A stretch of DNA of 64,000 bases from Candidatus Latescibacterota bacterium (GCA_965116875.1 OZ220733.1:1216001-1280000), one strand, 5' to 3'; shown: positions 42,737-55,108, counted from the stretch's first letter. A program made the numbers and translations. The notes: generated from the sequence alone by a model not told the origin.

Positions 42737-44005
42737 ATGGATCTGAACCGGGTGGTATCGGATCTGGAGATCGAAGAAAGCCGCAAGATCCTCGAGCCTT
42801 CGTGGGAGATCTCCCGGCGCGCCGTGCCGGACGGGGAGGTCCCCTTTCTGTCACCGGACTTCGTGAGAGAGGCCTGCCGGGGGATTTACCTCCCGGAAGA
42901 CATCGTGCAGGCCTCGGTTGTGGCGGCAGACCTGGTGGCGAAGAACTGCGCACTGCGGGCTCTGGCGTGGCACTGCCACTGGTGTCTTTACGGCGTGGAA
43001 GGATATCCGAGCCGCCTGGCGGACGACTGGCCCTGCATGAAGGTCCCGATGGGAGAACTGGCCGGACTCTTCTACCTGCTGGTACTCCTGTCGCGGTTTC
43101 CTGAAATGCGATCGGTACACCGGGCGCACGGGATTCCCGAACGGGTCGTACGGGACAGCATGGAACAGATTTACCTCAGAGGCGAAACCTGCAGCGAAAT
43201 CTACGGCAGGTGGGGCCTGGACGGACACGCGGCCCGTTGGCTGGCCAACTTCCTCCGCGGCGAGATCTACGCCCTGGGCCGCCTTGAACACCAGTTCAAT
43301 GTGATGAACGACCCGTTTCGCGTCTATCGTCACAGGGAGTCGTCCATGGTCGTCGCTCTGAGCGAAGCCGGCGTTACCTATCGCCCTGACGGCCAGCGGC
43401 ACAGAGGCGGAGATGCGCTGCCGGTCTGGACCTCCCGGCTCCTGGTGACAGGGGAAAGGATTGCCGGGCATCCCATCCTTCCCACGGGCCGGGCCTGCGA
43501 AGAAATGGTGACGCTTGCCGCGGCCGATTGGGTTTGTGTGCTGGGACCGGGAGATCCTGTTCTGTATTTTCATATTCCCGGCGGCATACCGCTTGATCAC
43601 GCCGCTTGCGGGGACTCCTTCCGCGCCGCGATGGAATTTTTCCCCCGCCATTTTCCCGAACGTCCGTACCGCGCGTTCTTCTGCGGTTCCTGGCTGCTGG
43701 ATACGCAACTGGAAGACTGGCTTCCGTCCGGATCGAATCTGGTTCGTTTCCTGCGGGAGTTCTACATGGTTCCCGGCGGCATCTCGGCACGGTCGATCCT
43801 GCAGACGGTGTTCGGGAACGCGGCGGATGACCTGAGCAAGGCCCCCGGCGACACGTCGCTCCAGCGCGCAATTCTGGAACATGCGTCCGCGGGCAGGCCG
43901 ATCGATCCCCGCGCGGGCAAATGCTTTCTGTTCCCCGAAGACCTGGATTGGGGACGACAGGTCTACCGGACGTCGAAGTTTCCATGGTATCTGGTCGGTT
44001 GTTGA
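42737..44005 (+). CDS. N-acyltransferase (DUF5596/GNAT_C-like)
   Basis: HRAHGIPE, YALGRLEHQ, FHIPGG, FFCGSWLLD, SNLVRF, TSLQRAI. Confidence 0.75.
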   Translation: MDLNRVVSDLEIEESRKILEPSWEISRRAVPDGEVPFLSPDFVREACRGIYLPEDIVQASVVAADLVAKNCALRALAWHCHWCLYGVEGYPSRLADDWPCMKVPMGELAGLFYLLVLLSRFPEMRSVHRAHGIPERVVRDSMEQIYLRGETCSEIYGRWGLDGHAARWLANFLRGEIYALGRLEHQFNVMNDPFRVYRHRESSMVVALSEAGVTYRPDGQRHRGGDALPVWTSRLLVTGERIAGHPILPTGRACEEMVTLAAADWVCVLGPGDPVLYFHIPGGIPLDHAACGDSFRAAMEFFPRHFPERPYRAFFCGSWLLDTQLEDWLPSGSNLVRFLREFYMVPGGISARSILQTVFGNAADDLSKAPGDTSLQRAILEHASAGRPIDPRAGKCFLFPEDLDWGRQVYRTSKFPWYLVGC

Positions 44006-44027
44006 TTGGAAACACAAGGAGGTCGAC

Positions 44028-45158
44028 ATGGAGCGGTTCGGAAAGCTGGAGCTGGACTACCTGGCGGAAGTGATCGCCAGCGGGTCGCTGAACAGCAAGA
44101 CCGGGAAATTCACGACCCGGCTGGAGGAGCGATTCGCTGCGTGGGTGGGGGCGGAATACGCTTTGGCAATGAACAGTGCGATGAGTGTGCTGCACACGGC
44201 CGTGGCCGCGGCCGGCGTTGGACCGGGCGTGGAAGTCGTCTGCGATCCCGTGGTCCACTTCGGCGGCGCAGCGGTGATGTATCACAACGGGGTGCCTGTA
44301 TTCTGCGACATCGATGAGGACAGCTGGAATATGGATCCCGATTCGCTCGAGGCGTGCATCACGGAACACACGGGCGCCGTCATCTGCACGCCGATGTGGG
44401 GAAACCCGCCGGATTACGAGGGGATTCTCCGGGTGGCGAACAGATATGGACTCCCTGTGATCGAAGACGTGGCGCACGGCGTCGGGGGTTCGTACAGAGG
44501 CAGGCCCCTGGGAACGCTGGGGTCGATCGGTTCATTCAGTTTTCAGGAGGCCAAGCACCTCACCAGCGGAGACGGCGGCATGGCGGTAACCGACCGGGCC
44601 GACCTGGTCGAAAAAATGTTGGAAATGAGGATCATCAAAACGACCCTGGGTTGGAATTACCGAATGACGGAACTGCAGGCCGGGGTGATGCTGGCGCAGA
44701 TGGACAGGGCCGACGGGATCATTTCGGCGCACCACAAGGCGGGGGCGCTCTACTGCGAAGCCGCAAGGGAGGCGCCATGGCTGGTGCCGCAGCGTGTGCC
44801 GGACGGGTGCGTCAACGCCTGCCACGCGGTCGCGTTCCGGTTCGAAGGCGACCGCGAGGGGATATCGGTGGAGCGTTTTCAAAAGACCATGGTCGAACAC
44901 GGATGTCCGGTCTCGATCGGATACAAGAGACGCTCCGCCGCCGAAGATCCGATCTTCACGGAGGTCCTGGCGTACGGCAAAGGGTGCCCCATCCGTTGCC
45001 CCCATTACGCGGGCAGCGCACGCTACGGAAAGGGAGTGACCCCGGTGGCCGATCGCGCGGTGCCCCGCATGGTCGTGATGCCAATGGACGTGTATACACC
45101 CGGAAAGACCGAGGAGTACGCGGAACGGATCCAGGCGGGGTTGCGCGCACTTGCGTGA
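44028..45158 (+). CDS. DegT/DnrJ/EryC1/StrS PLP-dependent aminotransferase
   Basis: SD AAGGAGG; IEDVAH, SFSFQEAKHLTSGDGG (PLP Lys), NYRMTELQA. Confidence 0.93.
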   Translation: MERFGKLELDYLAEVIASGSLNSKTGKFTTRLEERFAAWVGAEYALAMNSAMSVLHTAVAAAGVGPGVEVVCDPVVHFGGAAVMYHNGVPVFCDIDEDSWNMDPDSLEACITEHTGAVICTPMWGNPPDYEGILRVANRYGLPVIEDVAHGVGGSYRGRPLGTLGSIGSFSFQEAKHLTSGDGGMAVTDRADLVEKMLEMRIIKTTLGWNYRMTELQAGVMLAQMDRADGIISAHHKAGALYCEAAREAPWLVPQRVPDGCVNACHAVAFRFEGDREGISVERFQKTMVEHGCPVSIGYKRRSAAEDPIFTEVLAYGKGCPIRCPHYAGSARYGKGVTPVADRAVPRMVVMPMDVYTPGKTEEYAERIQAGLRALA

Positions 45159-45190
45159 TCGATGGGCGAGGAGGGATAGAACGGCGGGGT

Positions 45191-46051
45191 TCAGTGCCCG
45201 TGCTGCGCTTCCGTACCATGAACGGCGCTGGATTCAACGAAGTAAAGGGCGTAGGCGAGACCGATTCCCACGAGAAGGGATGCGATGAGTTTGCCGCGAT
45301 CATGGCTGTGGAAGTGGATCTCGGGAAGCAGATCGCTCAGCGCGATGCACAGAAACGCGCCCGCGGCAAACGCAAGCACGTAGCCGATAACCGAGCCGTC
45401 GTCCAGGCCGAGCAGCCCCAGGCCCCAGAAACTGGCGAGAGCCACCAGCGGGCACAGCATGGCGAACGCGAAATTGGCCGCCGCACGCGCGCGCGCGCTG
45501 AATCCCCCGAACTTCATCATGCCGATGATGGAGTACGCATCGAGCGGCTTGTGAAGGAGGATTGCGAGGAAGACGCCGAGGGCGGGCAGCGCGCCACCGT
45601 CTTCATGCGGCGAACTGATCCGCATGCTGGTGCCCAGTGCGACGCCTTCGGTGATGGTATGCACGCCCAGGCCCATGGCAACCCCTACCAGGCTGCCCGA
45701 ATGTCCGATGGAGCCACCGTGGTCGTGATGTTCGTGCAGTTCGCCGGCTTCATCGCTGAAGTCGTGCTGATGGAAGTGGAACACGCGTAGCAGGAAGATC
45801 ATCAGGACCATGCCGAAAACCACCCACGCGACGGCTTTCTCCACGTTTCCCGGTCCGGTAATCCGTTCGAGACTGTGCGGCAAGAGGTGGTACATGGCGA
45901 TGCCGAGGATAAAACCCGCCACGAGGCTCATCAGTATCTGGATTTTCGTGTGGGTCATGGATCCCAGGACGGCCAGTTTCCCGCCGGCAAAGGAAACGGC
46001 AAAGATTCCCAGTGAATATCCCGATATGATGAGCAAACTGTCTGAATCCAC
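45191..46051 (-). CDS. ZIP family divalent metal transporter
   Basis: His-rich loop HFHQH...HEHHDH; GVHTITEGVALG, LLHKPLD, LSDLLPE; GTG start at 46051 inferred. Confidence 0.88.
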   Translation of the reverse strand: MDSDSLLIISGYSLGIFAVSFAGGKLAVLGSMTHTKIQILMSLVAGFILGIAMYHLLPHSLERITGPGNVEKAVAWVVFGMVLMIFLLRVFHFHQHDFSDEAGELHEHHDHGGSIGHSGSLVGVAMGLGVHTITEGVALGTSMRISSPHEDGGALPALGVFLAILLHKPLDAYSIIGMMKFGGFSARARAAANFAFAMLCPLVALASFWGLGLLGLDDGSVIGYVLAFAAGAFLCIALSDLLPEIHFHSHDRGKLIASLLVGIGLAYALYFVESSAVHGTEAQHGH

Positions 46052-46082
46052 GATGACCTGACCTTGCGTTGACTTCGATTGA

Positions 46083-46215
46083 TTTCCAGTTCGGCGCCCG
46101 CGGACGAAGGTACCCAACGGGTCCGCCGGTCGTGACGATTTCCATGCGAGACACAGCTTCCGAAGCGTCCGTGTGAATCCTCGCAGTGGTCGACCAAGGC
46201 GCCGAATCACCGGAA
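46083..46215 (-). ncRNA. Candidate structured cis-regulatory RNA upstream of the ZIP gene
   Basis: Nested stems TTCGGCGCC/GGCGCCGAA, GGTCG/CGACC, TGCGAG/CTCGCA, GCTTC/GAAGC, GCGGAC/GTCCGC; no known riboswitch consensus recognised. Confidence 0.3.
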
Positions 46216-46290
46216 TTTTTCAGGGGCAACCCTCACTTCCGGCGCCGGGTTGCCCCCTTTTGTCATTTGCCCGTATCGAACCGTTGCGAC

Positions 46291-46779
46291 TCAGAAGAAC
46301 AGCATCAGGAGCAGGATACTGCTCATCCCGCCCAGCATAAACCCGCCTATGCTGACCGCGCCGGAAACCAATGAATAGTCGGCGATACGAAACGTCTGTT
46401 CGCCCAACGTAAAGAGCACCTGGGTCCGATTGATTTCCCTATCCGCGAAATGTTTCAATGCCTCTTCGGCGCTGTGCGCCTCCTTGACAGAGACCATCGC
46501 GACAAGAATCATCGTGATCGCGGACGCCAGGGTCCCGGTTGCAAATACGAGCAACGTCGCCAGCGCAAGCCAGTGATAGGCCGCGTCTTCGACTCCGGAG
46601 GGCGAACTCATGAATCCGATGATCAATGCCGCGCCGCCCGCATTGCCCAAAAGCAGCAGGCGGGCAGACTCCGTAATCAGCCTGAACATCGTGCCGCGCC
46701 GCATATGGACGACCTTGTAGAGTTCCCGCAGCCACTCTTCGCCGATTTCTTCGGCCGAAAATTCATCCACCTTTTTCAA
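46291..46779 (-). CDS. Small hypothetical membrane protein (about 3 TM helices)
   Basis: Hydrophobic stretches, LLLLGNAGGAALI; tightly packed in the operon. Confidence 0.7.
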   Translation of the reverse strand: MKKVDEFSAEEIGEEWLRELYKVVHMRRGTMFRLITESARLLLLGNAGGAALIIGFMSSPSGVEDAAYHWLALATLLVFATGTLASAITMILVAMVSVKEAHSAEEALKHFADREINRTQVLFTLGEQTFRIADYSLVSGAVSIGGFMLGGMSSILLLMLFF

Positions 46780-46782
46780 CGG

Positions 46783-47937
46783 TCATTCTCCTCCGAGATC
46801 GATCAATCTGACGTATCGGGAACCGGTGTTGGTTCCAGGTCCGAAGGCGAGGGTCCAATCGTCAATCGCTATCGGTCCGGACGTCAATGCCTGTTGCAGG
46901 AAATGCTCCCGCGTCAACGTCTCGCCCATGCGGTTCAGCACCTCGATGACGAAACGGCCCAGAATGTATCCCTCGAGGGACACCTCGTTGACGCCATACT
47001 CCCCGTCGTCCGCGCGGCTTGCAGAGTCCGTGGCCGCCATGGCCCGGTGAAAGCTCCTGACCACCCGCATGCCAGTGTCGTCCGCATCCGGCATCACCTC
47101 GGAAACCAGAATTCTGTTGCTCGGCGCTTCGATCCTCTTCTTCAACTCGTAGGACAGAACGAACGACAGATTGGCCATAATGTATCTGTGGCCGAGAGAG
47201 TGCGCCAGGTTGATTATTTCAGAATTGGACGCATACGCGCCGACGATCATGATGGCCTCAAGGTCGGCCTTGGCCAGGCCGAACAGGCTGGCCTGGACGG
47301 CGTGTGTGTTTCGAGAGAATGCGGTCTTCGCCAGAATGGGGATTCCTTTTCCGTCGAGAACCGACTTGTAGTTCTTCAGGACGGAACGACCGAACGCGTC
47401 GTCCTGATAGATGATGCCGAACCGCTTCTTGCCGCGCTTCCTCAGAATGTGATTTACCAGTACGCGGGTCTCGTCCAGATAGCCCGCTCTGAGGTTGATG
47501 ACGTTTGGAAACCGTCTGGCATTGCGCAGGAAGGCGGCGCCGGTAAAGGGGCCCACGAAGGGTATTTTTGCAGATTTCAATACCGGCGCGATGCGTTTCG
47601 CCGTGGGCGTACCCACGCCGCCGATAACGGCAAAAACGTCGTCCCCGGAAGCGAATCGCTCCGCGTTGGCGGCCGCCAGTTCAGGCTCGTAGGCATCGTC
47701 CAGAGAAATAAGCCTGAGCGCCCTGCCGTTGACGCCGCCCCCGCGGTTCACTTCGAAAAAGGCCGCACGAATACCGGCCCGGTAGTTGAATCCCAACTGT
47801 CTGTTCGGCCCGGAGAAACACGCGCTCTGGCCGAAGACAATCGTCGTATCGATGACACCTTGCGCCGCCTGGGACGTCGCGACCGGCAGCAGGGCGAGCC
47901 AGAATACCCATAGCCCACTGACGATGTGTGCCGCCAT
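46783..47937 (-). CDS. Periplasmic binding protein, LivJ/Peripla_BP_6-like
   Basis: Signal peptide; IVFGQSACFSGP, VNRGGGVNGR, LDDAYEP, GVGTPT, NLRAGY. Confidence 0.88.
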   Translation of the reverse strand: MAAHIVSGLWVFWLALLPVATSQAAQGVIDTTIVFGQSACFSGPNRQLGFNYRAGIRAAFFEVNRGGGVNGRALRLISLDDAYEPELAAANAERFASGDDVFAVIGGVGTPTAKRIAPVLKSAKIPFVGPFTGAAFLRNARRFPNVINLRAGYLDETRVLVNHILRKRGKKRFGIIYQDDAFGRSVLKNYKSVLDGKGIPILAKTAFSRNTHAVQASLFGLAKADLEAIMIVGAYASNSEIINLAHSLGHRYIMANLSFVLSYELKKRIEAPSNRILVSEVMPDADDTGMRVVRSFHRAMAATDSASRADDGEYGVNEVSLEGYILGRFVIEVLNRMGETLTREHFLQQALTSGPIAIDDWTLAFGPGTNTGSRYVRLIDLGGE

Positions 47938-47967
47938 TCGCTACCCTCTTCCCGAGGCGTGCCACAT

Positions 47968-49398
47968 TTACTTCGACGTGGCGCCACCCTCCCCCTTCTT
48001 TGCCGGCTTGCCGGCAGCTACGTCCTGCTTCTCCTGATTGGCGGCGGCCGTCGCTTTCTTGCCCTTCCTGGGGCCGACCTTCGTTTTCTTCACGGATTTG
48101 ACGCCGGGCGTTGCCTGCGTCGTCGACCTGGCATCCTCCTCTGGGAGTACCTCCACCATCGGCTTTTCCTGCTCCTGCCGGCTGAACCGTTTGCCGCGCA
48201 CAACGTGGCTGTGGGAGAATATCGAAGGTGTGTCGAAGATGAGCGACCGGGGGTTGGCCACGTCCAGGTGATCGCGTTCCGCGCGCACTCTGTGGAATTG
48301 GCCGTCGAACGTGAGTCTGTCCTCATCGACGTTTTCAATCCTATGTATATCGGGCATTTGCGTTGAAGATAACGCCATCCTGCCGTCCGCACGGCCGGTC
48401 CCGGAAGGTTGCTTCCCCAGGGCCAGATCGGCCGGCGTGAAACCCTCGCCCGCGCCGTCAATCATGTTAATGTCGATGGACGACTGATTGGCCGGGTTGA
48501 CCGCCGCCAGGCTCGCCTCGGAGAAGATCTTCCGCATTCGGTCCCAATAGCGCGTGATACGTACGTGCGAAGGCATTTTCCTGTATTCGCCCAGCAGTGC
48601 GGTGAACGCCCCCGCGCTGCTCTTCGCCTGCACGACCCGTTCAGACGCCCTGGCCTTTGCTTCCAATACCAGCGCCTCCGCCTGTCCACGGCTGCGCGCG
48701 ATCAGCTGCTCCTTCTGTCGATTTGCGTCGCTTACCGCCTTCGCGCGCTCCGCGAACGCATCGCTGACGTCCCGGAACGCGGCGATGGTTTCTTCGATGG
48801 GTCGCACGTCGACGATGTCGAGCGATATGAGCTCTATCCCGATGTCGCGGTTCTCAAGCCATGCGGTAATCCTGTCGAACAGCCTGCTCTGGATTATGTT
48901 TCGATTGGAGGTGAGAATCAGATCGATGAAGTTCTCACCCAGGACGTCGATAAGCTCTTCCCTGGTGTAAACGGTCAGCATCGCGATGGGATCGCTGGAG
49001 ACAAACAGGAAATTTCCGAGATTATCGATCCGGTACTGAAGCGCGACGTCCACCTCAAGCAGATTCACGTCCCCGGACAATAGGGTAAAATTAACTTTGC
49101 TGCCTTCCCTGCTGGATACCTGGTATCGAATAACCCGCTTGACCTTGCGGATGTGTACCTTGTCGATGATCGGAATGCAATAGCGAATTCCCGGGCGGAC
49201 GTTGGCTTTCACGACTCTGCCGAACCGCAGGACGACGCCGAGTTCTTCCTTCTTCACAATGTACAGTCCGCTGGCCAGAATGCAGACGACAACCGCGGCA
49301 GCGGTCCAGACGATGATTCGCCGCCGGTGTTTCGAGCAATAATCGAATATGGTGTAGATGATCCGCGTACTCCGCGGCAATGACGACTGTTCGCTCAT
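47968..49398 (-). CDS. SPFH protein, HflK-like, with long charged C-terminal tail
   Basis: TM helix then GVVLRFGR...PG, LLSGDVNLLEVDVALQYRI, AFRDVSDA, ARSRGQA. Confidence 0.85.
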   Translation of the reverse strand: MSEQSSLPRSTRIIYTIFDYCSKHRRRIIVWTAAAVVVCILASGLYIVKKEELGVVLRFGRVVKANVRPGIRYCIPIIDKVHIRKVKRVIRYQVSSREGSKVNFTLLSGDVNLLEVDVALQYRIDNLGNFLFVSSDPIAMLTVYTREELIDVLGENFIDLILTSNRNIIQSRLFDRITAWLENRDIGIELISLDIVDVRPIEETIAAFRDVSDAFAERAKAVSDANRQKEQLIARSRGQAEALVLEAKARASERVVQAKSSAGAFTALLGEYRKMPSHVRITRYWDRMRKIFSEASLAAVNPANQSSIDINMIDGAGEGFTPADLALGKQPSGTGRADGRMALSSTQMPDIHRIENVDEDRLTFDGQFHRVRAERDHLDVANPRSLIFDTPSIFSHSHVVRGKRFSRQEQEKPMVEVLPEEDARSTTQATPGVKSVKKTKVGPRKGKKATAAANQEKQDVAAGKPAKKGEGGATSK

Positions 49399-49416
49399 TT
49401 CGACCGGTCTCTGGAT

Positions 49417-50307
49417 TTATCGTGGAGTGGTTCTGCTGTTGAGGTACTTGAACAACTCATTGTCGGCCGGCAGCATCAACGTGGTGTTCCGGTCGATAAT
49501 CAGGTCATAGCTGTCCAGGGCGCGGATGAAGCTGTAGAATCCCGGGTCCTGCCGGTATGCCTTGCCCAGCACCGCCATCGCCTCCGCCTCGGCCTTGCCG
49601 AGGATGGCGGTGGCCTCCGCATGCGCGTCGGCCAGCAGCTTTTCGTGTTCGTTAATGGCCAGGGCCTCGATTCGAAGGGCCATTTCCTCTCCCTCGCTGC
49701 GGTATCGGGCGGCAATGCGGGCGCGTTCCGCGATCATGCGCTGAATGACGCTGGGACGGTTCTCACTCGGCAGGGTGTATTCGACGATTCCCGCCTCGAT
49801 GACCTCGATGCCGTAGCTTTCTCTGGCAATTGGCGCGATTCTGGCGTGTATTTCACGCGAAGCCTCGTTCAGGTCTTCGTGTTCCAGGCCCAGCCCGATA
49901 AAGGCGTCCAGGGCCTTGTTGCTGATGATGATCCCGCTGCTGGACAGATAGAGGTCCTGCAAGCGCTCAACGGCGTTCTTCCCGGTGCGTATCGCCTCGA
50001 CGAACAGAATGGGGTCCACCGTCCGCCACAGCAGGTACCCGTCGACGCGCACGCTTTTCTGATCGTCGGTAATCAACTCGTGAGGCATGTCGGTCAGCGT
50101 ATGAATACGCCGGTCCACCTTGTAAATCCTGGAGATGGGACGGGGCCACTTCAGATGCAATCCCGGTTGTCTGACCGGCGGCGAAATCCTGCCGAAGTGC
50201 GTCAGTACGCCCTGCTGGGTCTCGTGGATAATGTAGATGCTGTCGTAGACGATTGCGCCGGCAAGCACGGCGATGGCCGCCGTAATCGTGGCTTTCTTGA
50301 GCGTCAT
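49417..50307 (-). CDS. SPFH protein, HflC-like
   Basis: PGLHLKWP, LITDDQK, WRTVDP, RMIAERARIAARYRSEGEE, AYRQDPGFYSFIRALDSY. Confidence 0.9.
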   Translation of the reverse strand: MTLKKATITAAIAVLAGAIVYDSIYIIHETQQGVLTHFGRISPPVRQPGLHLKWPRPISRIYKVDRRIHTLTDMPHELITDDQKSVRVDGYLLWRTVDPILFVEAIRTGKNAVERLQDLYLSSSGIIISNKALDAFIGLGLEHEDLNEASREIHARIAPIARESYGIEVIEAGIVEYTLPSENRPSVIQRMIAERARIAARYRSEGEEMALRIEALAINEHEKLLADAHAEATAILGKAEAEAMAVLGKAYRQDPGFYSFIRALDSYDLIIDRNTTLMLPADNELFKYLNSRTTPR

Positions 50308-50448
50308 TGCCTTTCCCCGTAAGTGAGGGCGTGCAGGTTGCGCGTGTGAGATCGACCCGCCGACCCGGTGCGGTTCTGGTTTACCGGTCGCCAACCGAAT
50401 GGCGTGGAATCCGGGGCTCCATCCCGTAGTTGGATTGCATACATGAAA

Positions 50449-52770
50449 TTACCGCGTTCGCTTTTTGGCGGCCTTTTTTCCGTGGCCGGACGGCGGGCCG
50501 TGGTTGGCTCCGGAGGTCTTCTTCTTCCACAGGGCGACCTTTTCGAGGCTCTTCTTGTTGGGAACGATGATCTTGGGGTTTCCGGCCAACGCCGTTTCCA
50601 GCTTCTCCCGCCAGAGCATGTTCCGCAGGACGCCCGGCGCGGTTCTGACGGCCCTGGAGACCGTGGATATGGCATCCGCCTCAGCGGCAGCTGTCTTGAC
50701 TTTCCGATAGGCTTCGCCGTCGGCCTGCTGTACCTCCCACGCCGCGTTTCCATGCGCCTGGGGCACCAGCGATACAAGGAAGCGCTGCGCATTGACAATA
50801 ATCCGCTCCCGGTCTTCCTGAGCGCTGGAAACGTCCCTGAAAGCGCTCATGGTCTCCGCCACCGGACTCACGTCCAGCAGATTGACCTTGACGATTTCAA
50901 CGGTTTTCAGTACCGAATTCGCAAAGTGCACGTCCACGTCGAAGGAACGGGTGAGATGATCTTCGAGCGTTGCGCGGTGCACGTTCAGCATTCTTTCGAG
51001 GTCCCGGGCGGAGATAAACGAACGCACGTGGGCTTTGACGACGTCGGCGATGACTTTCTGCGGGTCTTCCGTCCGATAATGATAGACGTAGGGATCCTTG
51101 ACCCTGTATTGCACGTTGACGGTAAGAGAGATCAGGTTGAGGTCGCCGGACACGTATTCTTCAGGCGTCTCACAAAGGATGGACTTCACTTCCCGCACAG
51201 GCCATTTGTCGACTTTGACGAACGGCCATGGGGCGAGATAGCTCAGCCCCGGCTGGACGTCGCGCCAGTAGACCTCGCCGAGAAGCCGGCCGTAACCCAC
51301 AGAATTGGGAGGTATGATTGTGAATCCGCTGGCCAGGAACAGGACGAGAAGGAATCCCCAGATCAACTTGCCCAACGGCGTGGCGGGAGAGATGATTCCC
51401 CTGAAGCTTCGCCTGCGGGTGAGGCGCTCCCAGGCCTGACCCCACGATTTCGCCAGAGGCCGTACGTTGAGCAGCAGGTCCTCCCAGCCGCTGCGGAGCG
51501 CGCCGGCCCGAAAACGCCAGACGATGAGAGCGACGAGAACCAGCGCCGAGCCCCACTGCAAAAATTGTATCGTCGGCGATTCGGAGGGGCCGAGGTATAG
51601 CGGGATCGTCAGGCCGGTGGCCAGAAGCAGCGCGTCGATCACGATACCGAGTGCAACTGTGACCGCGATCACCGCCGCTACGTATATGGTAGCGAAACGT
51701 GCCCCGAACTGGCTGACGATAATCGCGATCGTACCGGTATTGGTGGCGGGCCCGGTCATCAGAAAGATCAGCGCCGCACCGGGGCTGAATCCCTTTGCGA
51801 CGAGGGCCGCGGCGATCGGCGTGCTTGCCGATGCGCAGATATAGAGAGGAACGCCGACCAGCACCATGACGGGATAGGAGACCCAGCGCGCATACTCGTT
51901 TGTCATCAGGTCGCCCGGTATGACCAGAAAGAGCACTCCGCCCAGGGCCACGCCAACCAGCAGCGCAAAGAGGATGTCGTCCGCAATCTCCACGAAACCG
52001 TAGTGGAAGACGTGCTTCACCAGCTTCTTGAAGTCGAGTGCGTGATCCTCCGTGGACGTGTCTCCCGTGGAAGCCTTTCCGGCCTCCTCAGCCTCCAGCG
52101 CGTCACGGTAGAAGGTCGGTTTCACCCAGGAAAGGGACTTCCAGCGGCCGGCCACCGTGACGACGCCCTTCAGCCACTGTACGAAAAGGCCCTTCAATCT
52201 AGAAAAGCTTACGTAGCAGTCGTCGGTCTCGGGAATGAGGGGCTCGTGCGAACCGTGATCGTGGTCATGATCGTGCCCGTGGTCATGGTCATGATCGTGA
52301 TCATGGTCGTGTTCTTCGTGGCTATGGTCCGATCCGGCTACGCCATGGTCGTTACGTATAAGGCCGATGCAAAAGATGCCGGCGACGACGGCCGTGATGA
52401 AGCTGATCACCGGACGCACGACCGCGGCGACAAATCCGAAGAAGGCGTTCGTGACAAGAATCGAGTCCGCCCCCGTCTCCGGCGCGGTTATCAGGAACGA
52501 CATGCAGGACGAACGGGATGCGCCTTTCCTGCGCATCTCGGCAACCACGGGTACAACGGAACAACTGCACAACGGCACGGGGACGCCCACGGCCGAACTC
52601 ACGGCAACGGATTTCAGGCTGTCGTCCTTGAGCCACCTGAGGATGGCCTCACGGGAGATAAACACATGGATCAGGCCCGAGAGGAACAACCCCAGCAACA
52701 GCATGGGCGCCAGGAGCAAACCGGACATCCAGAGAAAGTCGAAGAAACTGACCAGCGTCTGCTGTACCAC
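50449..52770 (-). CDS. DUF318/SO_0444-type metal permease with His-rich loop fused to a C-terminal HflK-like SPFH domain
   Basis: SD GGAGG + GTG; GVPVPLCSCSVVP and GVPLYICASASTP; (HD)n loop; then SGDLNLISLTVNVQYRVKDP, AFRDVSSAQEDRER, PQAHGNA in one unbroken frame. Confidence 0.88.
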   Translation of the reverse strand: MVQQTLVSFFDFLWMSGLLLAPMLLLGLFLSGLIHVFISREAILRWLKDDSLKSVAVSSAVGVPVPLCSCSVVPVVAEMRRKGASRSSCMSFLITAPETGADSILVTNAFFGFVAAVVRPVISFITAVVAGIFCIGLIRNDHGVAGSDHSHEEHDHDHDHDHDHGHDHDHDHGSHEPLIPETDDCYVSFSRLKGLFVQWLKGVVTVAGRWKSLSWVKPTFYRDALEAEEAGKASTGDTSTEDHALDFKKLVKHVFHYGFVEIADDILFALLVGVALGGVLFLVIPGDLMTNEYARWVSYPVMVLVGVPLYICASASTPIAAALVAKGFSPGAALIFLMTGPATNTGTIAIIVSQFGARFATIYVAAVIAVTVALGIVIDALLLATGLTIPLYLGPSESPTIQFLQWGSALVLVALIVWRFRAGALRSGWEDLLLNVRPLAKSWGQAWERLTRRRSFRGIISPATPLGKLIWGFLLVLFLASGFTIIPPNSVGYGRLLGEVYWRDVQPGLSYLAPWPFVKVDKWPVREVKSILCETPEEYVSGDLNLISLTVNVQYRVKDPYVYHYRTEDPQKVIADVVKAHVRSFISARDLERMLNVHRATLEDHLTRSFDVDVHFANSVLKTVEIVKVNLLDVSPVAETMSAFRDVSSAQEDRERIIVNAQRFLVSLVPQAHGNAAWEVQQADGEAYRKVKTAAAEADAISTVSRAVRTAPGVLRNMLWREKLETALAGNPKIIVPNKKSLEKVALWKKKTSGANHGPPSGHGKKAAKKRTR
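52255..52326 (-). repeat. His-Asp tandem coding repeat in the permease
   Basis: Encodes HSHEEHDHDHDHDHDHGHDHDHDH using mixed CAC/CAT and GAC/GAT codons. Confidence 0.85.
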
Positions 52771-52913
52771 GCAATTGCCTCCAGTGCATTGACTGATGCA
52801 AAGGGCAGTCTGGTAGGCGATTCAGAAACCGGGAACGAACGGCGTCGCACACAGTGTTGTATCGACCGTCATGCTTGCCGACAGAAACGGACGCACCGAT
52901 TTCCGGAGCGGCA

Positions 52914-52964
52914 ATAATAACGGTACGTATATTTCAAGTCAAGGACTTTATATTAAATAATATA
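52914..52964 (-). promoter_or_regulatory. sigma70 promoter of the permease-SPFH operon with an upstream AT-rich dyad
   Basis: Minus strand TTGACT(52942)-N17-TATTAT(52919); dyad TATATTA-AA-TAATATA at 52949-52964. Confidence 0.65.
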
Positions 52965-53139
52965 GTGGATTCTATGTCCGCTGCAAGAGGACGAATTCAA
53001 ACTGGAAGTGTTTTCTTTCGGCCGTTCCGACAGGACAGCGGCGGCAGGCCGATTTCGGATTCGAAACACGTCCCGGGCGGGCGGTCGCGGCGTTGCAGGG
53101 CGCAGAGGCCCGACGTCGGCTCGGCATTCGTCTCCGGGC

Positions 53140-53922
53140 TCAGGAAGGCCCGCGGTCGCGATCGGTACGGCCGGTACTTATGACATAACGCGGGCGGTTG
53201 TGTACGGGACGAAACCCGATTCTCCTGTAGACCCGTTCGGCGGCGCTGCCGGCCGCCACTTCAAGCCCGGTCCATCGATTGCCCATCGAATGTGAGTCCA
53301 CGACCGCACGGGAGGTCACCGCCGACGCCACGCCCCTGCGGCGGTATTGAGGCAGCGTGCCGATGAAGTCGACACAACCCAGACCGTATCTGGAATAAAT
53401 CAACGCGGTTCCCGCGGGCTCGCCATCCACGGTTGCGAGGTAGAGCCGTATTTCGGGAATGCTCAGAACCTCCTTGCCGAGGGCGCCCACGCTGTCCGGA
53501 AAACCGAAGCTGCGACACATGGTGGTCGCCCAGACTCCGTACCGGCCCGGATCGAGTTCTTCGACCTCGATGGATTCGGAGACAAAGGGCCGGACGTACC
53601 CGTCGCAACGCATCGCCACGGCCTGCAGCTCAAACGTGAATCCCCTGCTTTTCAGCCGTTCAGCCAGATCGGCGGGGCGGTCCAGCGGCGACAGGGTAAA
53701 CGCACAGTCGAAGTCCCGATCCCGGAAGTGGGCGAGGGCGCTGTCGATCAAGGTGTCCACCATCGTGTCGGGCACGTCGATCTGTACGACACGGTGCAGC
53801 ATGGGTACTTTAACGTCCTCGCGGCTGAACGCCGTGGCCCCGCCCAGATCGTGACTGTCGCACCAGCGTGCCCTGAAGCCGATCCAGAGTTTTTCGAAAG
53901 TTGTCGTGAATGAGTCGGACAT
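53140..53922 (-). CDS. GNAT family N-acetyltransferase
   Basis: YLATVDGEPAG, IGTLPQYRRRGVA (acetyl-CoA motif A), VYRRIGF. Confidence 0.88.
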   Translation of the reverse strand: MSDSFTTTFEKLWIGFRARWCDSHDLGGATAFSREDVKVPMLHRVVQIDVPDTMVDTLIDSALAHFRDRDFDCAFTLSPLDRPADLAERLKSRGFTFELQAVAMRCDGYVRPFVSESIEVEELDPGRYGVWATTMCRSFGFPDSVGALGKEVLSIPEIRLYLATVDGEPAGTALIYSRYGLGCVDFIGTLPQYRRRGVASAVTSRAVVDSHSMGNRWTGLEVAAGSAAERVYRRIGFRPVHNRPRYVISTGRTDRDRGPS

Positions 53923-54139
53923 GGAACTGGAAGTCCTCCGGGATTCTGTTGCGACTGTTGCATCCGTTGCGAAAATCCACCGGATTCGTATATTGTTTCG
54001 CCTCAGAAAACAGGTCTATCGTCGGGGAATTGCAACTTATCCCCCTGTGTTCCGTATAATGATCGTATCTGACGACCGCCCCACCGCGCGGACTGTTTCA
54101 CCAGAGCCTTTTTCAGGTGCGGAATTCGAGGTTTGCACA

Positions 54140-55108
54140 ATGAGGTTTATCGTTACCGGCAGCAACGGCTTTATCGGCCAGAGTACATGCCGTCGTCTCA
54201 CGGAACTCGGACATGACGTTATCGGTGTTGACGATCTGTCTTCCGGAAGCCCTCCCAACGGGGTGCACGGCGTTCAATATCACGTCCACAGCGTCGTGGA
54301 CGCGGACTGGTTCGCGCGACTCCTCAAGAACACGATTCCGGATGCGGTCCTTCATCTGGCGGCAAAGCCGCGGGTTCCGTATTCGGTGCAGAATCCATTT
54401 CGCAGCGCGGAAGCGAATGTAATGGGAACAATGTCCGTGCTCAACGCGATTCTCAAGTCCGGGTTTGTGGAGAGAACGCGCATGGTCTTCGCCAGCAGCA
54501 GCGCGGTATGCGGCGAGGCTTCGGTCCTTCCCACACCGGAAGCCTGCCCCTCGAACCCGCAATCGCCCTACGCGTTGGCGAAGCTGCACGGCGAACATTG
54601 GTGCGGTATGTTTCATCGACTCTACGGGCTGGATGCGGTAAGCCTTCGATATTTCAACGTGTTCGGACCCGGCGCGCTTTTTGGCGGTGCGTATTCCACT
54701 GTATTGTCGGCCTGGCCCTATGCTCTGTACGTGGATCCTTCGTACCAGCCGTTCCTGGAGGGCGACGGCACGCAGACTCGGGATTTCTGCTATATAGATA
54801 ACGTTGTCAACGCGAATATCGCTGCTGCGACTCGCGGGCGCGGGTTTAAAGCGGATGTGCTCAACGTGGGCCAGGGTGAAGCCCACTCCATGCTTGAGGT
54901 TAAAGGCGTCCTCGAACAGGTTGCGGGCAGAGAACTCCGGCTCGAACGCCGGCCGCCACGCGTGGGCGACGTCGCACATACCCTGGCCGACATCTCCCGG
55001 GCCCGGGAGGAACTCGGGTTCGTGCCGTCGACCGACTTCCATGCGCAGGTCGAACGAACGGCGTTATGGCACCGCGACTGTTATCCGAAACTGACGTCTG
55101 AGCGCTGA
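54140..55108 (+). CDS. NAD-dependent epimerase/dehydratase (extended SDR)
   Basis: VTGSNGFIG, HLAA, ASSSA, YALAK, LRYFNVFGP, GDGTQTRDF. Confidence 0.92.
   Translation: MRFIVTGSNGFIGQSTCRRLTELGHDVIGVDDLSSGSPPNGVHGVQYHVHSVVDADWFARLLKNTIPDAVLHLAAKPRVPYSVQNPFRSAEANVMGTMSVLNAILKSGFVERTRMVFASSSAVCGEASVLPTPEACPSNPQSPYALAKLHGEHWCGMFHRLYGLDAVSLRYFNVFGPGALFGGAYSTVLSAWPYALYVDPSYQPFLEGDGTQTRDFCYIDNVVNANIAAATRGRGFKADVLNVGQGEAHSMLEVKGVLEQVAGRELRLERRPPRVGDVAHTLADISRAREELGFVPSTDFHAQVERTALWHRDCYPKLTSER

Follow-up and report, generated by a model that had tools for sequence, protein, structure and literature searches.

In a 64,000-nucleotide (nt) stretch of DNA from Candidatus Latescibacterota bacterium (GCA_965116875.1 OZ220733.1:1216001–1280000; hereafter the window, with positions counted from its first letter), an ORF survey identifies six close-packed open reading frames (ORFs) on the minus strand, running from 52770 to 45191. 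The first encodes a metal permease fused to an HflK-like SPFH protein, and it is followed by genes for an HflC-like protein, a free HflK-like protein, a periplasmic binding protein, a small membrane protein, and a ZIP transporter. In gene order from the fusion, the intergenic gaps are 54, 18, 30, 3, and at least 80 nt, and all features of the window described below lie on the same strand. An initial annotation, made from the sequence alone, had listed these six genes and interpreted them as a caged metal-transport system; all six ORFs are present, and the interpretation as a whole is partly supported. The fusion is genuine, old, and widespread, and the three SPFH genes of the cassette have co-evolved with one another and separately from the housekeeping hflKC genes. 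On balance, we lean toward the reading that the cassette is a conserved module for thiophilic metals, in which a dedicated HflK/C-like cage would surround a permease tethered to its K-type subunit.

The permease-SPFH fusion and its partner subunits

The fusion gene (50449–52770) encodes a protein of 773 residues. Its permease domain, residues 1–421 (51508–52770), belongs to the SO_0444/ArsP_1 family: residues 17–379 match Pfam ArsP_1 with 155.1 bits (threshold, 32.3), and residues 20–418 align with positions 8–349 of the 351 in NF033936, the SO_0444 Cu/Zn efflux profile, at 321.4 bits, which is above its cut-off of 300. The two Cys motifs and the His/Asp-rich loop of the initial annotation can all be located, PLCSC at residues 66–70 (52561–52575), YICAS at residues 310–314 (51829–51843), and the loop at residues 139–176 (52243–52356). 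C68, C70, and C312 do not vary across an alignment of 83 sequences. The AF2 model of the fusion, based on an 83-row alignment (mean pLDDT 84, pTM 0.61), suggests that the permease consists of a pair of inverted repeats, that in each of them a re-entrant helical hairpin carries a Cys motif at its tip, and that residues 399–421 form the final membrane helix of the permease. The His/Asp-rich loop is predicted to be disordered, with pLDDT below 50 for residues 144–171. A VIA wide search relates the permease half to elevator-type carriers (Pho90, Z 12.7; ArsB, Z 11.5; INDY and TRAP-QM, Z ∼10), all of them scores at which helical bundles can match through arrangement alone; these matches came solely from that search, and a Foldseek search of the PDB left the permease half unmatched.

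The HflK-like half (residues 483–773; 50449–51324) is modeled as an SPFH domain followed by a coiled coil of ∼90 residues and C-terminal strands. Residues 505–661 match Band_7 (47 bits, Pfam), and the score of this half against the hflK profile TIGR01933, 138.9 bits, is below the equivalog cut-off of 159.4. Comparison with known structures points in the same direction, by sequence (HflK of PDB 7vhp, E 4e-16), by Foldseek (9cz2/7vhq, E ∼1e-12; HflK, E 7e-13), and by VIA (HflK, Z 15.9 over 267 residues). Between the two halves, the junction (51325–51507) comprises a linker helix (residues 424–451) and an HflK-type anchor helix (residues 465–480), assigned from conservation and the AF2 model, and carries the conserved motifs WRFRAGA...G..D..N and GF..VPPG. 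As modeled, the fused half thus has the architecture of the HflK/HflC type (anchor helix, SPFH, coiled coil, and C-terminal strands), and profiles and model agree with the annotation that the permease runs in frame into a full HflK-like SPFH and coiled-coil region. Applying the positive-inside rule together with the HflK precedent, the N-terminus is predicted to be outside, the His/Asp-rich loop and the linker cytoplasmic, and the SPFH part periplasmic; the two hairpins would enter the membrane from opposite sides, that of PLCSC from the cytoplasmic one and that of YICAS from the periplasmic one. A complex prediction of permease residues 1–485 with the small membrane protein scored 0.01 against a mark of 0.32, which is evidence neither way.

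Among the best 120 homologues listed, 116 carry both ArsP_1 and Band_7. A scan of 1.84 billion cluster representatives (clusters at 50% identity) gave 8733 matches at E ≤0.001; the best 150 representatives include 106 that are 650–941 residues long, of which 56 aligned over their full length at 26–46% identity. Contigs from two sequencing runs (X1 and X2) span 50400–52250 and 52318–52900 with 0 differences and bridge the junction; one of these runs may be the window's own source. A third run, X3, labeled as a sponge metagenome, provides a 582-nt contig (50981–51562) that crosses the junction with 17 differences. In this mapping, the coding repeat at 52251–52317, within the His/Asp-rich loop, was skipped as a repeat. 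Misassembly or a frame error, the risk that had been attached to the region around 51300–51500, is rejected on the basis of the widespread two-domain homologues, the conserved loci, and the bridging contigs, and the fusion is far from unique to its contig.

The same mapping shows that the summed contig depth in the segment 52332–52583 rises from ∼8 to 226–699 in X1 and to 12–30 in X2 and X3. The segment encodes the most conserved part of the permease, and the rise comes from many contigs of 37–64 nt with 1–6 differences. It would seem to be common to many co-resident organisms, matching the spread between phyla discussed below.

The two genes that follow the fusion encode its putative partner subunits. 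Gene 2 (49417–50394; 325 residues) scores 154.6 bits against the HflC equivalog TIGR01932, above the cut-off of 134.4, while gene 3 (47968–49398; 476 residues) reaches 152.4 bits against TIGR01933, below the cut-off of 159.4. A tree of 98 SPFH sequences, built by quick search with SH-aLRT as its sole support measure, separates C-type and K-type proteins with support 100. Gene 2 falls in the C-type and gene 3 in the K-type half, and the 28 fused domains all fall into a single clade (support 98). Gene 2 groups near, yet apart from, housekeeping HflC, and housekeeping HflK and HflC form clades of their own. Moreover, the same sub-clades are repeated in all three SPFH gene trees: a 13-row close clade with support 100 in each, four Acidobacteriota/Myxococcota rows, Burkholderiales with Bradyrhizobium, and Dadabacteria with Spirochaetia. 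Because of this repetition, the SPFH part of the fusion, gene 2, and gene 3 are taken to be passed on together, in inheritance and in transfer alike.

Gene 3 continues past the canonical end of HflK. This tail (47968–48350) includes a conserved motif at residues ∼351–400, the ANPRSLIFDTPSIFSHSHVV region, with a column conservation of 0.7–0.83 over 22 sequences and charged, poorly conserved flanks; it is a candidate docking peptide, which would sit at the top of the putative dome.

Conservation and repeated loss of the SPFH trio

The host genome, a single contig of 5.45 Mb, has a separate housekeeping system, as the initial annotation had recommended checking: HflK (270.6 bits) and HflC (222.9 bits) are encoded at 5.098 Mb. 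It also has a flotillin-like gene at 0.643 Mb, and the fusion is its only ArsP_1 gene. Of 21 genomes from the genus and order to which the window belongs, 20 have a housekeeping hflK and only 11 have the cassette. The absence of ftsH, hflX, and ABC permease/ATPase genes from the operon, also noted earlier, is evident; the one FtsH of the genome (830 bits) is encoded at 4.147 Mb, 2.9 Mb away.

These data bear on the possibility that the cassette is a quality-control tether, in which the cage would still hold FtsH and the permease would be its substrate or cargo, its level set by regulated proteolysis. The binding of FtsH by HflK/C is established (PDB 7wi3 and 9cz2), the fused half and gene 3 lie just under the HflK cut-off while gene 2 passes that for HflC, the fused clade is sister to housekeeping HflK (support 94), and the genome does encode an FtsH. 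On the other hand, ftsH does not recur when the flanks of 84 loci are clustered, and none was seen in or near the cassettes examined. In addition, a full housekeeping hflKC is retained beside the cassette, whose SPFH genes form co-evolving clades of their own. We consider the tether unlikely, if worth keeping in mind, and prefer a cage dedicated to the permease.

How constant is the cassette? In what follows, locus ORFs were called mechanically and taxon labels are those of the records. The close set comprises 83 loci with 57–93% identity, 60 of which have the five-gene core (the fusion followed by the HflC-like, HflK-like, binding-protein, and small-membrane-protein genes); three are irregular, 13 have shortened fusions, and seven lie at a contig edge. 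The ZIP gene adjoins 35 of the 60 five-gene loci, in six of them on the opposite strand. In the irregular locus L051, the HflC-like gene was undetected between the fusion and the HflK-like gene, and in L074 (13747–17582) the binding-protein gene is split, with residues 20–156 and 155–381 ∼2.7 kb apart in an insertion-like arrangement. Of the 76 close loci that could be judged, 63 keep the trio when these two and the third irregular locus (L073) are counted with the 60.

The full loci carry eight phylum labels (Latescibacterota, Gemmatimonadota, Thermodesulfobacteriota/Dadabacteria, Acidobacteriota, Verrucomicrobiota, Pseudomonadota, Spirochaetota, and Binatota). Mis-binning cannot account for this spread because several of the loci are on contigs of 1.6–7.2 Mb. 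Across phylum labels, the fusion proteins share 55–71% identity, and those of Dadabacteria and Spirochaetia 82%. No plasmid vector for the spread was found: among 60 matching plasmid records, none covered ≥80% of the fusion, and the matches in the plasmid collection were plain hflK or plain SO_0444 genes only.

A second scan for distant members added 18 loci with 27–33% identity, from Planctomycetota, Myxococcota, Acidobacteriota, Burkholderiales, Binatia, Tectimicrobiota, and the cultured Bradyrhizobium erythrophlei GAS478. Fusion, HflC, and HflK stand in fixed order in all 18, and neither the binding protein nor the small membrane protein is present in any of them. Since the distant loci keep the trio and not the extra genes, the invariant unit is the SPFH trio with its fused permease, and the two extra genes mark one clade that recently spread between phyla. 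The recurring order, together with the matching gene trees, agrees with the initial view that HflC and HflK are dedicated to the fusion.

Two loci, L113 (a Burkholderiales metagenome-assembled genome) and L128 (B. erythrophlei GAS478), have a fourth SPFH gene, of the HflC type, upstream of the fusion. These upstream genes form a clade of their own (support 100). In L128, a formamidase-family gene lies between the fourth SPFH gene and the fusion, and a DDE transposase gene lies downstream.

The trio has also been dismantled repeatedly. In a permease tree of 60 rows (quick search), fused (15), truncated (12), and unfused (13) forms are interspersed within the close clade (support 100), whose starred branches force at least seven changes each for the truncated and the unfused forms. 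The shortened permeases end in the conserved linker helix, which lies outside the SO_0444 model. Scars of the deletions persist as a binding-protein fragment (L020), small-protein fragments (L085 and L094), and HflK fragments (L119), and of the 13 truncated loci, 11 still have the ZIP gene beside the permease. Permease and ZIP thus persist where the cage, an accessory, has often been given up. The earlier assignment of the SPFH proteins to the transport system stands as far as the conserved trio goes; against it, they have been dispensable in evolution, with at least seven losses.

In the region 7950–10877 of L119, a permease that runs to residue 419 is accompanied by two fragments of HflK-like genes, a small membrane protein that is intact, and ZIP; it is the only case seen of a small protein outliving the loss of the cage. 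In one Latescibacterota genome (L134: 3–3316 and 7917–9092), two unfused permeases of the close clade lie within 6 kb of each other, one of them beside ZIP.

Accessory genes, metal neighborhood, and regulation

The binding protein (46783–47937; 384 residues, with a signal peptide) is of type I and belongs to the LivJ/AmiC group. It matches Pfam Peripla_BP_6 with 153.4 bits (threshold, 31.7) and PDB 4kv7 with E 9.5e-43 at 30% identity (Foldseek TM 0.82–0.85), and it is modeled by AF2 as two lobes (pLDDT 89.9). Against the branched-chain amino-acid equivalog it scores 45.6, far short of 477. Its mean column identity is 49% over 43 sequences. The relatives bind amino acids, aromatic acids, amides, or urea, and they include the sensor AmiC. 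The initial annotation, which had counted the protein as part of a metal-transport system, needs correction here: its family takes small organic ligands, and judging from these relatives a bare metal ion is unlikely to be its ligand, a small organic molecule or a metal chelate being possible. It is also an orphan, as an ABC partner is absent from the operon.

The small membrane protein (46291–46779; 162 residues, ∼3 helices) is the most conserved product of the cassette, with a mean column identity of 71% over 39 sequences that resides chiefly in its predicted cytoplasmic parts. It has no family: Pfam gave no match, NCBIfam a weak one only, and its ESM Atlas neighbors are all clusters of "hypothetical protein". 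The ZIP transporter (45191–46210; a 339-residue ORF) matches Pfam PF02535 (67.8 bits; threshold, 35.1) and scores 24.4 against ZupT NF003243, below the cut-off of 252; its start codon is uncertain because homologues align only from residue ∼39–54. All three had been counted as parts of the system. For the binding and small membrane proteins this holds in the window's clade and fails in the distant loci, and ZIP, which is in the window's operon, is optional among five-gene loci, as described above.

The genes surrounding the cassette were compared by clustering the flanks of the 84 loci, each neighbor family being named from 1–3 representatives. CusA/CzcA-type RND pumps are present in 37 loci (a representative scores 1072 bits; cut-off, 701), adaptors in 36, and outer-membrane factors in 28; in nine loci, a same-strand RND pump ends ≤∼250 nt upstream. 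ZnuA is present in 17 of the 84 loci, the ABC-3 permease (ZnuB) in 15, and the ATPase (ZnuC) in 22. In L057, znuA on one side and znuCB on the other flank the cassette, and all of these genes run in the same direction. Among the 18 distant loci, znuA-znuC-znuB directly follows the trio on the same strand in five, and ZIP precedes the trio in three. A scan of 109 upstream ORFs gave eight TonB-dependent receptors and three CDF exporters; the one receptor that was scored fits ZnuD best, at 344 bits against a cut-off of 950.

These neighbors are genes for zinc and other heavy metals. According to PMC3219624, SO_0444 is required for growth under ZnSO4 or CuCl2 stress, with complementation; this protein carries no fusion, and a ZntR-like gene is regulated with it. 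Within the family, fitness and complementation data concern this Shewanella oneidensis protein only. Cd and Cu induce another member (PMC10092412). Collectively, these data suggest zinc as the metal most likely to be handled, with copper or cadmium possible. By homology, export from the cytoplasm would be somewhat likelier than import.

A different scheme treats the cassette as an importer of a metal or metallophore that resembles TRAP/TTT systems, in which the binding protein, the small subunit, and the elevator-type permease would act together and the SPFH dome would form a periplasmic chamber. An outer-membrane receptor similar to ZnuD would feed it, and it would be expressed under zinc limitation. 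ZnuA, ZnuD-like receptors, and ZIP do adjoin the cassette, Zur-box-like sites are present upstream in some loci, the permease is similar in fold to TRAP QM and further elevator-type proteins (Z ∼10), and the binding and small membrane proteins are adjacent to each other in all 60 five-gene loci. Yet the characterized members of the permease family that the search tools name, SO_0444 and SaoE, are exporters, as ArsP presumably also is. The binding protein and the small subunit are absent from all 18 distant fusion loci and, in 12 of the 13 truncated loci, were lost with the cage while the permease was kept; moreover, the family of the binding protein takes organic ligands, and CzcCBA-type efflux pumps are the commonest neighbors (37 of 84 loci). 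Such an importer is therefore rather improbable, and a caged permease that more likely exports its metal is preferred.

The neighborhood also bears on whether the substrate is a metal at all. It could instead be a thiol-reactive metalloid or sulfur compound, for instance an organoarsenical, with the SPFH part serving merely for oligomerization or stability and forming no closed cage. Membership of the ArsP_1 family, the weaker match of the permease to the SaoE efflux transporter profile (112 bits, NCBIfam), and the likeness to the ArsB fold (Z 11.5) would fit this proposal, as would a P-(L/F)-CSCS motif, which we take to be common to ArsP. Opposed to these are the top family score, which is for SO_0444 Cu/Zn efflux and above its cut-off, the presence of the His/Asp-rich loop, neighbors of the Zn/Cd/Cu type with no recurrence of ars genes in the flank clusters, and the retention of a full HflK coiled coil and C-terminal strands. 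Hence, a metal substrate and a cage are retained, and we regard the metalloid proposal as very improbable.

The six genes appear to be preceded by a single promoter, as had been proposed: a sigma-70-like site, TTGACT-17-TATTAT (52914–52942, 10/12 matches), both hexamers of which are kept in 13 related upstream regions aligned with that of the window (14 rows). Promoter-like sites in the region number five, with 3.2 expected. The 5′ leader (52771–52913) has a conserved hairpin-like block and a GGAGG ribosome site in the upstream-region alignment; an Rfam search of 44000–55000 found no meaningful family, the sole match being mir-598 at 27.9 bits (gathering threshold, 69). A perfect 7-2-7 inverted repeat, TATATTA-TT-TAATATA (52949–52964), is AT-rich and abuts the −35 box; it is a candidate operator, and AT-rich palindromes related to it occupy the same upstream spot in relatives. 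It corresponds to position 1268949 of the host genome. Among 134 perfect AT-rich palindromes genome-wide, of which nine sites were inspected, no regulon sharing this operator-like repeat was found.

The host genome contains, at 1041734–1041753, a perfect 20-bp palindrome, ATATACTATATATAGTATAT, that resembles half-sites upstream of the cassette promoters of relatives. A gene that combines cNMP-binding, Peptidase_C39, and ABC-exporter domains lies ∼190 bp downstream of it.

The only perfect Zur-like palindrome of the host genome, TTATGTTATAACATAA, is located in the region 726598–731126. It overlaps a promoter-like site, and it precedes a NicO-family gene and an ABC ATPase gene. The single Fur-family gene of the host, at 730773, is ∼4 kb downstream of the box, and the region is probably the Zur operon of the organism. 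A placement of COG0701/UPF0718 permeases in Zur regulons was not borne out (the terms were not found in PMC2770081).

A model of the cassette and its relation to known systems

In the model that we favor, the fused subunit (K′), the free K, and C would build one HflK/C-like ring with a periplasmic dome, in which C would alternate with K or K′. The tethered permeases would be held in the membrane patch of the ring, and the free K would dilute their number. Each permease would work as an elevator-type carrier, with the Cys-tipped hairpins from opposite sides forming the metal site and the cytoplasmic His/Asp-rich loop feeding metal to it. The cage would modulate or organize the permease as an accessory and would not be required for its work. 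In the window's clade, the orphan binding protein and the small membrane protein have been added to the module, which is usually found beside ZIP.

Several observations weigh against this model. The SPFH part, HflC, HflK, and the binding protein are deleted in 13 of the 83 close loci; since the SPFH part was lost at least seven times and the permease was retained, the permease can do without a cage. The fused SPFH clade may retain FtsH binding because it is sister to the housekeeping HflK of the same lineage, a relationship that the tree supports at 94. The joint assembly of K′, K, and C, and the position of the permease inside the ring, are steps that we infer, and the fold likeness of the permease (Z 10–12.7) falls in the range of chance arrangement noted above. 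Moreover, ZnuA is directly upstream on the same strand in eight loci, so that uptake genes are linked as tightly as efflux genes, and the mix of the two among the zinc and heavy-metal neighbors would fit either direction of transport. Zur-box-like palindromes lie ≤310 bp upstream of the fusion in four of 80 loci (0.003 expected per locus), as judged with a proteobacterial-type consensus; in the window's host, the cassette promoter lacks the single clear Zur-like box of the genome.

A bolder version of the cage holds that the SPFH dome is a closed periplasmic chamber that handles metal around its own transporters, with roles for the binding protein and ZIP. In this scenario, tethered elevator-type permeases would shuttle zinc between the cytoplasm and the lumen of the vault, the binding protein would act inside it, perhaps docked to the tail motif of gene 3, and ZIP would bring metal back to the cytoplasm. 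The result would be a protein-walled sub-compartment of the periplasm that buffers or stores metal and, in the window's clade, a third and so far unrecognized kind of binding-protein-dependent secondary transporter. We regard this version as speculative and quite improbable.

SPFH cages with clients are known already, as exemplified by HflK/C with FtsH, QmcA with YbbJ, and stomatin with aquaporin 1 and solute carriers. The Escherichia coli HflK/HflC-FtsH complex (7vhp, 7wi3, and 9cz2) likewise has a K-type and a C-type protein encoded side by side, with the same modeled subunit architecture and an SPFH part that is predicted to be periplasmic in the cassette as well. However, the cassette has three paralogues instead of two, one of them a K-type protein with an N-terminal permease of ∼420 residues; it lacks a nearby ftsH or hflX, it coexists with a separate canonical hflKC, and both of its K-type proteins score below the equivalog cut-off. 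Compared with SO_0444 of Shewanella oneidensis and ArsP_1 proteins, the N-terminal 420 residues pass NF033936 and the Cys motifs are conserved, but the permease runs into an HflK-like half, there is no MerR-type neighbor, and both uptake and efflux genes lie alongside.

Association of SPFH proteins with transporters has also been described, in PMC13724742, for stomatin and its associated solute carriers. In these assemblies and in stomatin-aquaporin 1 (PDB 9zd2), an SPFH ring is likewise associated with transport proteins in a membrane patch; they are non-covalent, homo-oligomeric, and cytosolic, whereas the ring of the cassette would be hetero-oligomeric and periplasmic, with its client fused at the level of the gene. 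QmcA-YbbJ, an SPFH-NfeD pair (PDB 8z5g was matched), is similar in that the SPFH protein has a dedicated membrane partner, but the cassette is without an NfeD-type gene and its partner is a fused transporter. TRAP/TTT systems, finally, share the set of binding protein, small membrane protein, and large elevator-type permease, although the permease resembles SiaQM and IseQM at the level of fold only (Z ∼10, in the range of chance arrangement noted above). They differ in that the binding protein of the cassette is of the LivJ/AmiC type and the two extra genes are limited to one clade, and none of the three proteins belongs to a DctP/Q/M or TctA/B/C family in Pfam or NCBIfam.

A client fused to a cage subunit that has two private partner subunits was not found in the literature searched, in line with the initial statement that no characterization was known, and look-ups of terms in PMC2636767 and PMC13086221 returned nothing on a fused cage client. 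The NCBI name of these proteins is "SO_0444 family Cu/Zn efflux transporter" only, and one JGI name lists both halves. Hundreds of proteins that bear just this name carry an unannotated cage half, and one version of the cassette has spread over at least eight phylum labels at 55–82% protein identity.

For HflK/C, prohibitins, stomatin, and flotillins, how an SPFH cage chooses its client, and what effect the cage has on it, is an open question. In the cassette, fusion to a cage subunit would have settled the choice of client, and evolution has supplied two partner subunits that are private to it. The repeated deletion of the cage provides natural pairs with and without it, with a defined client and a simple metal read-out (sensitivity, uptake, and content), and a cultured, non-pathogenic carrier, Bradyrhizobium erythrophlei GAS478, exists.

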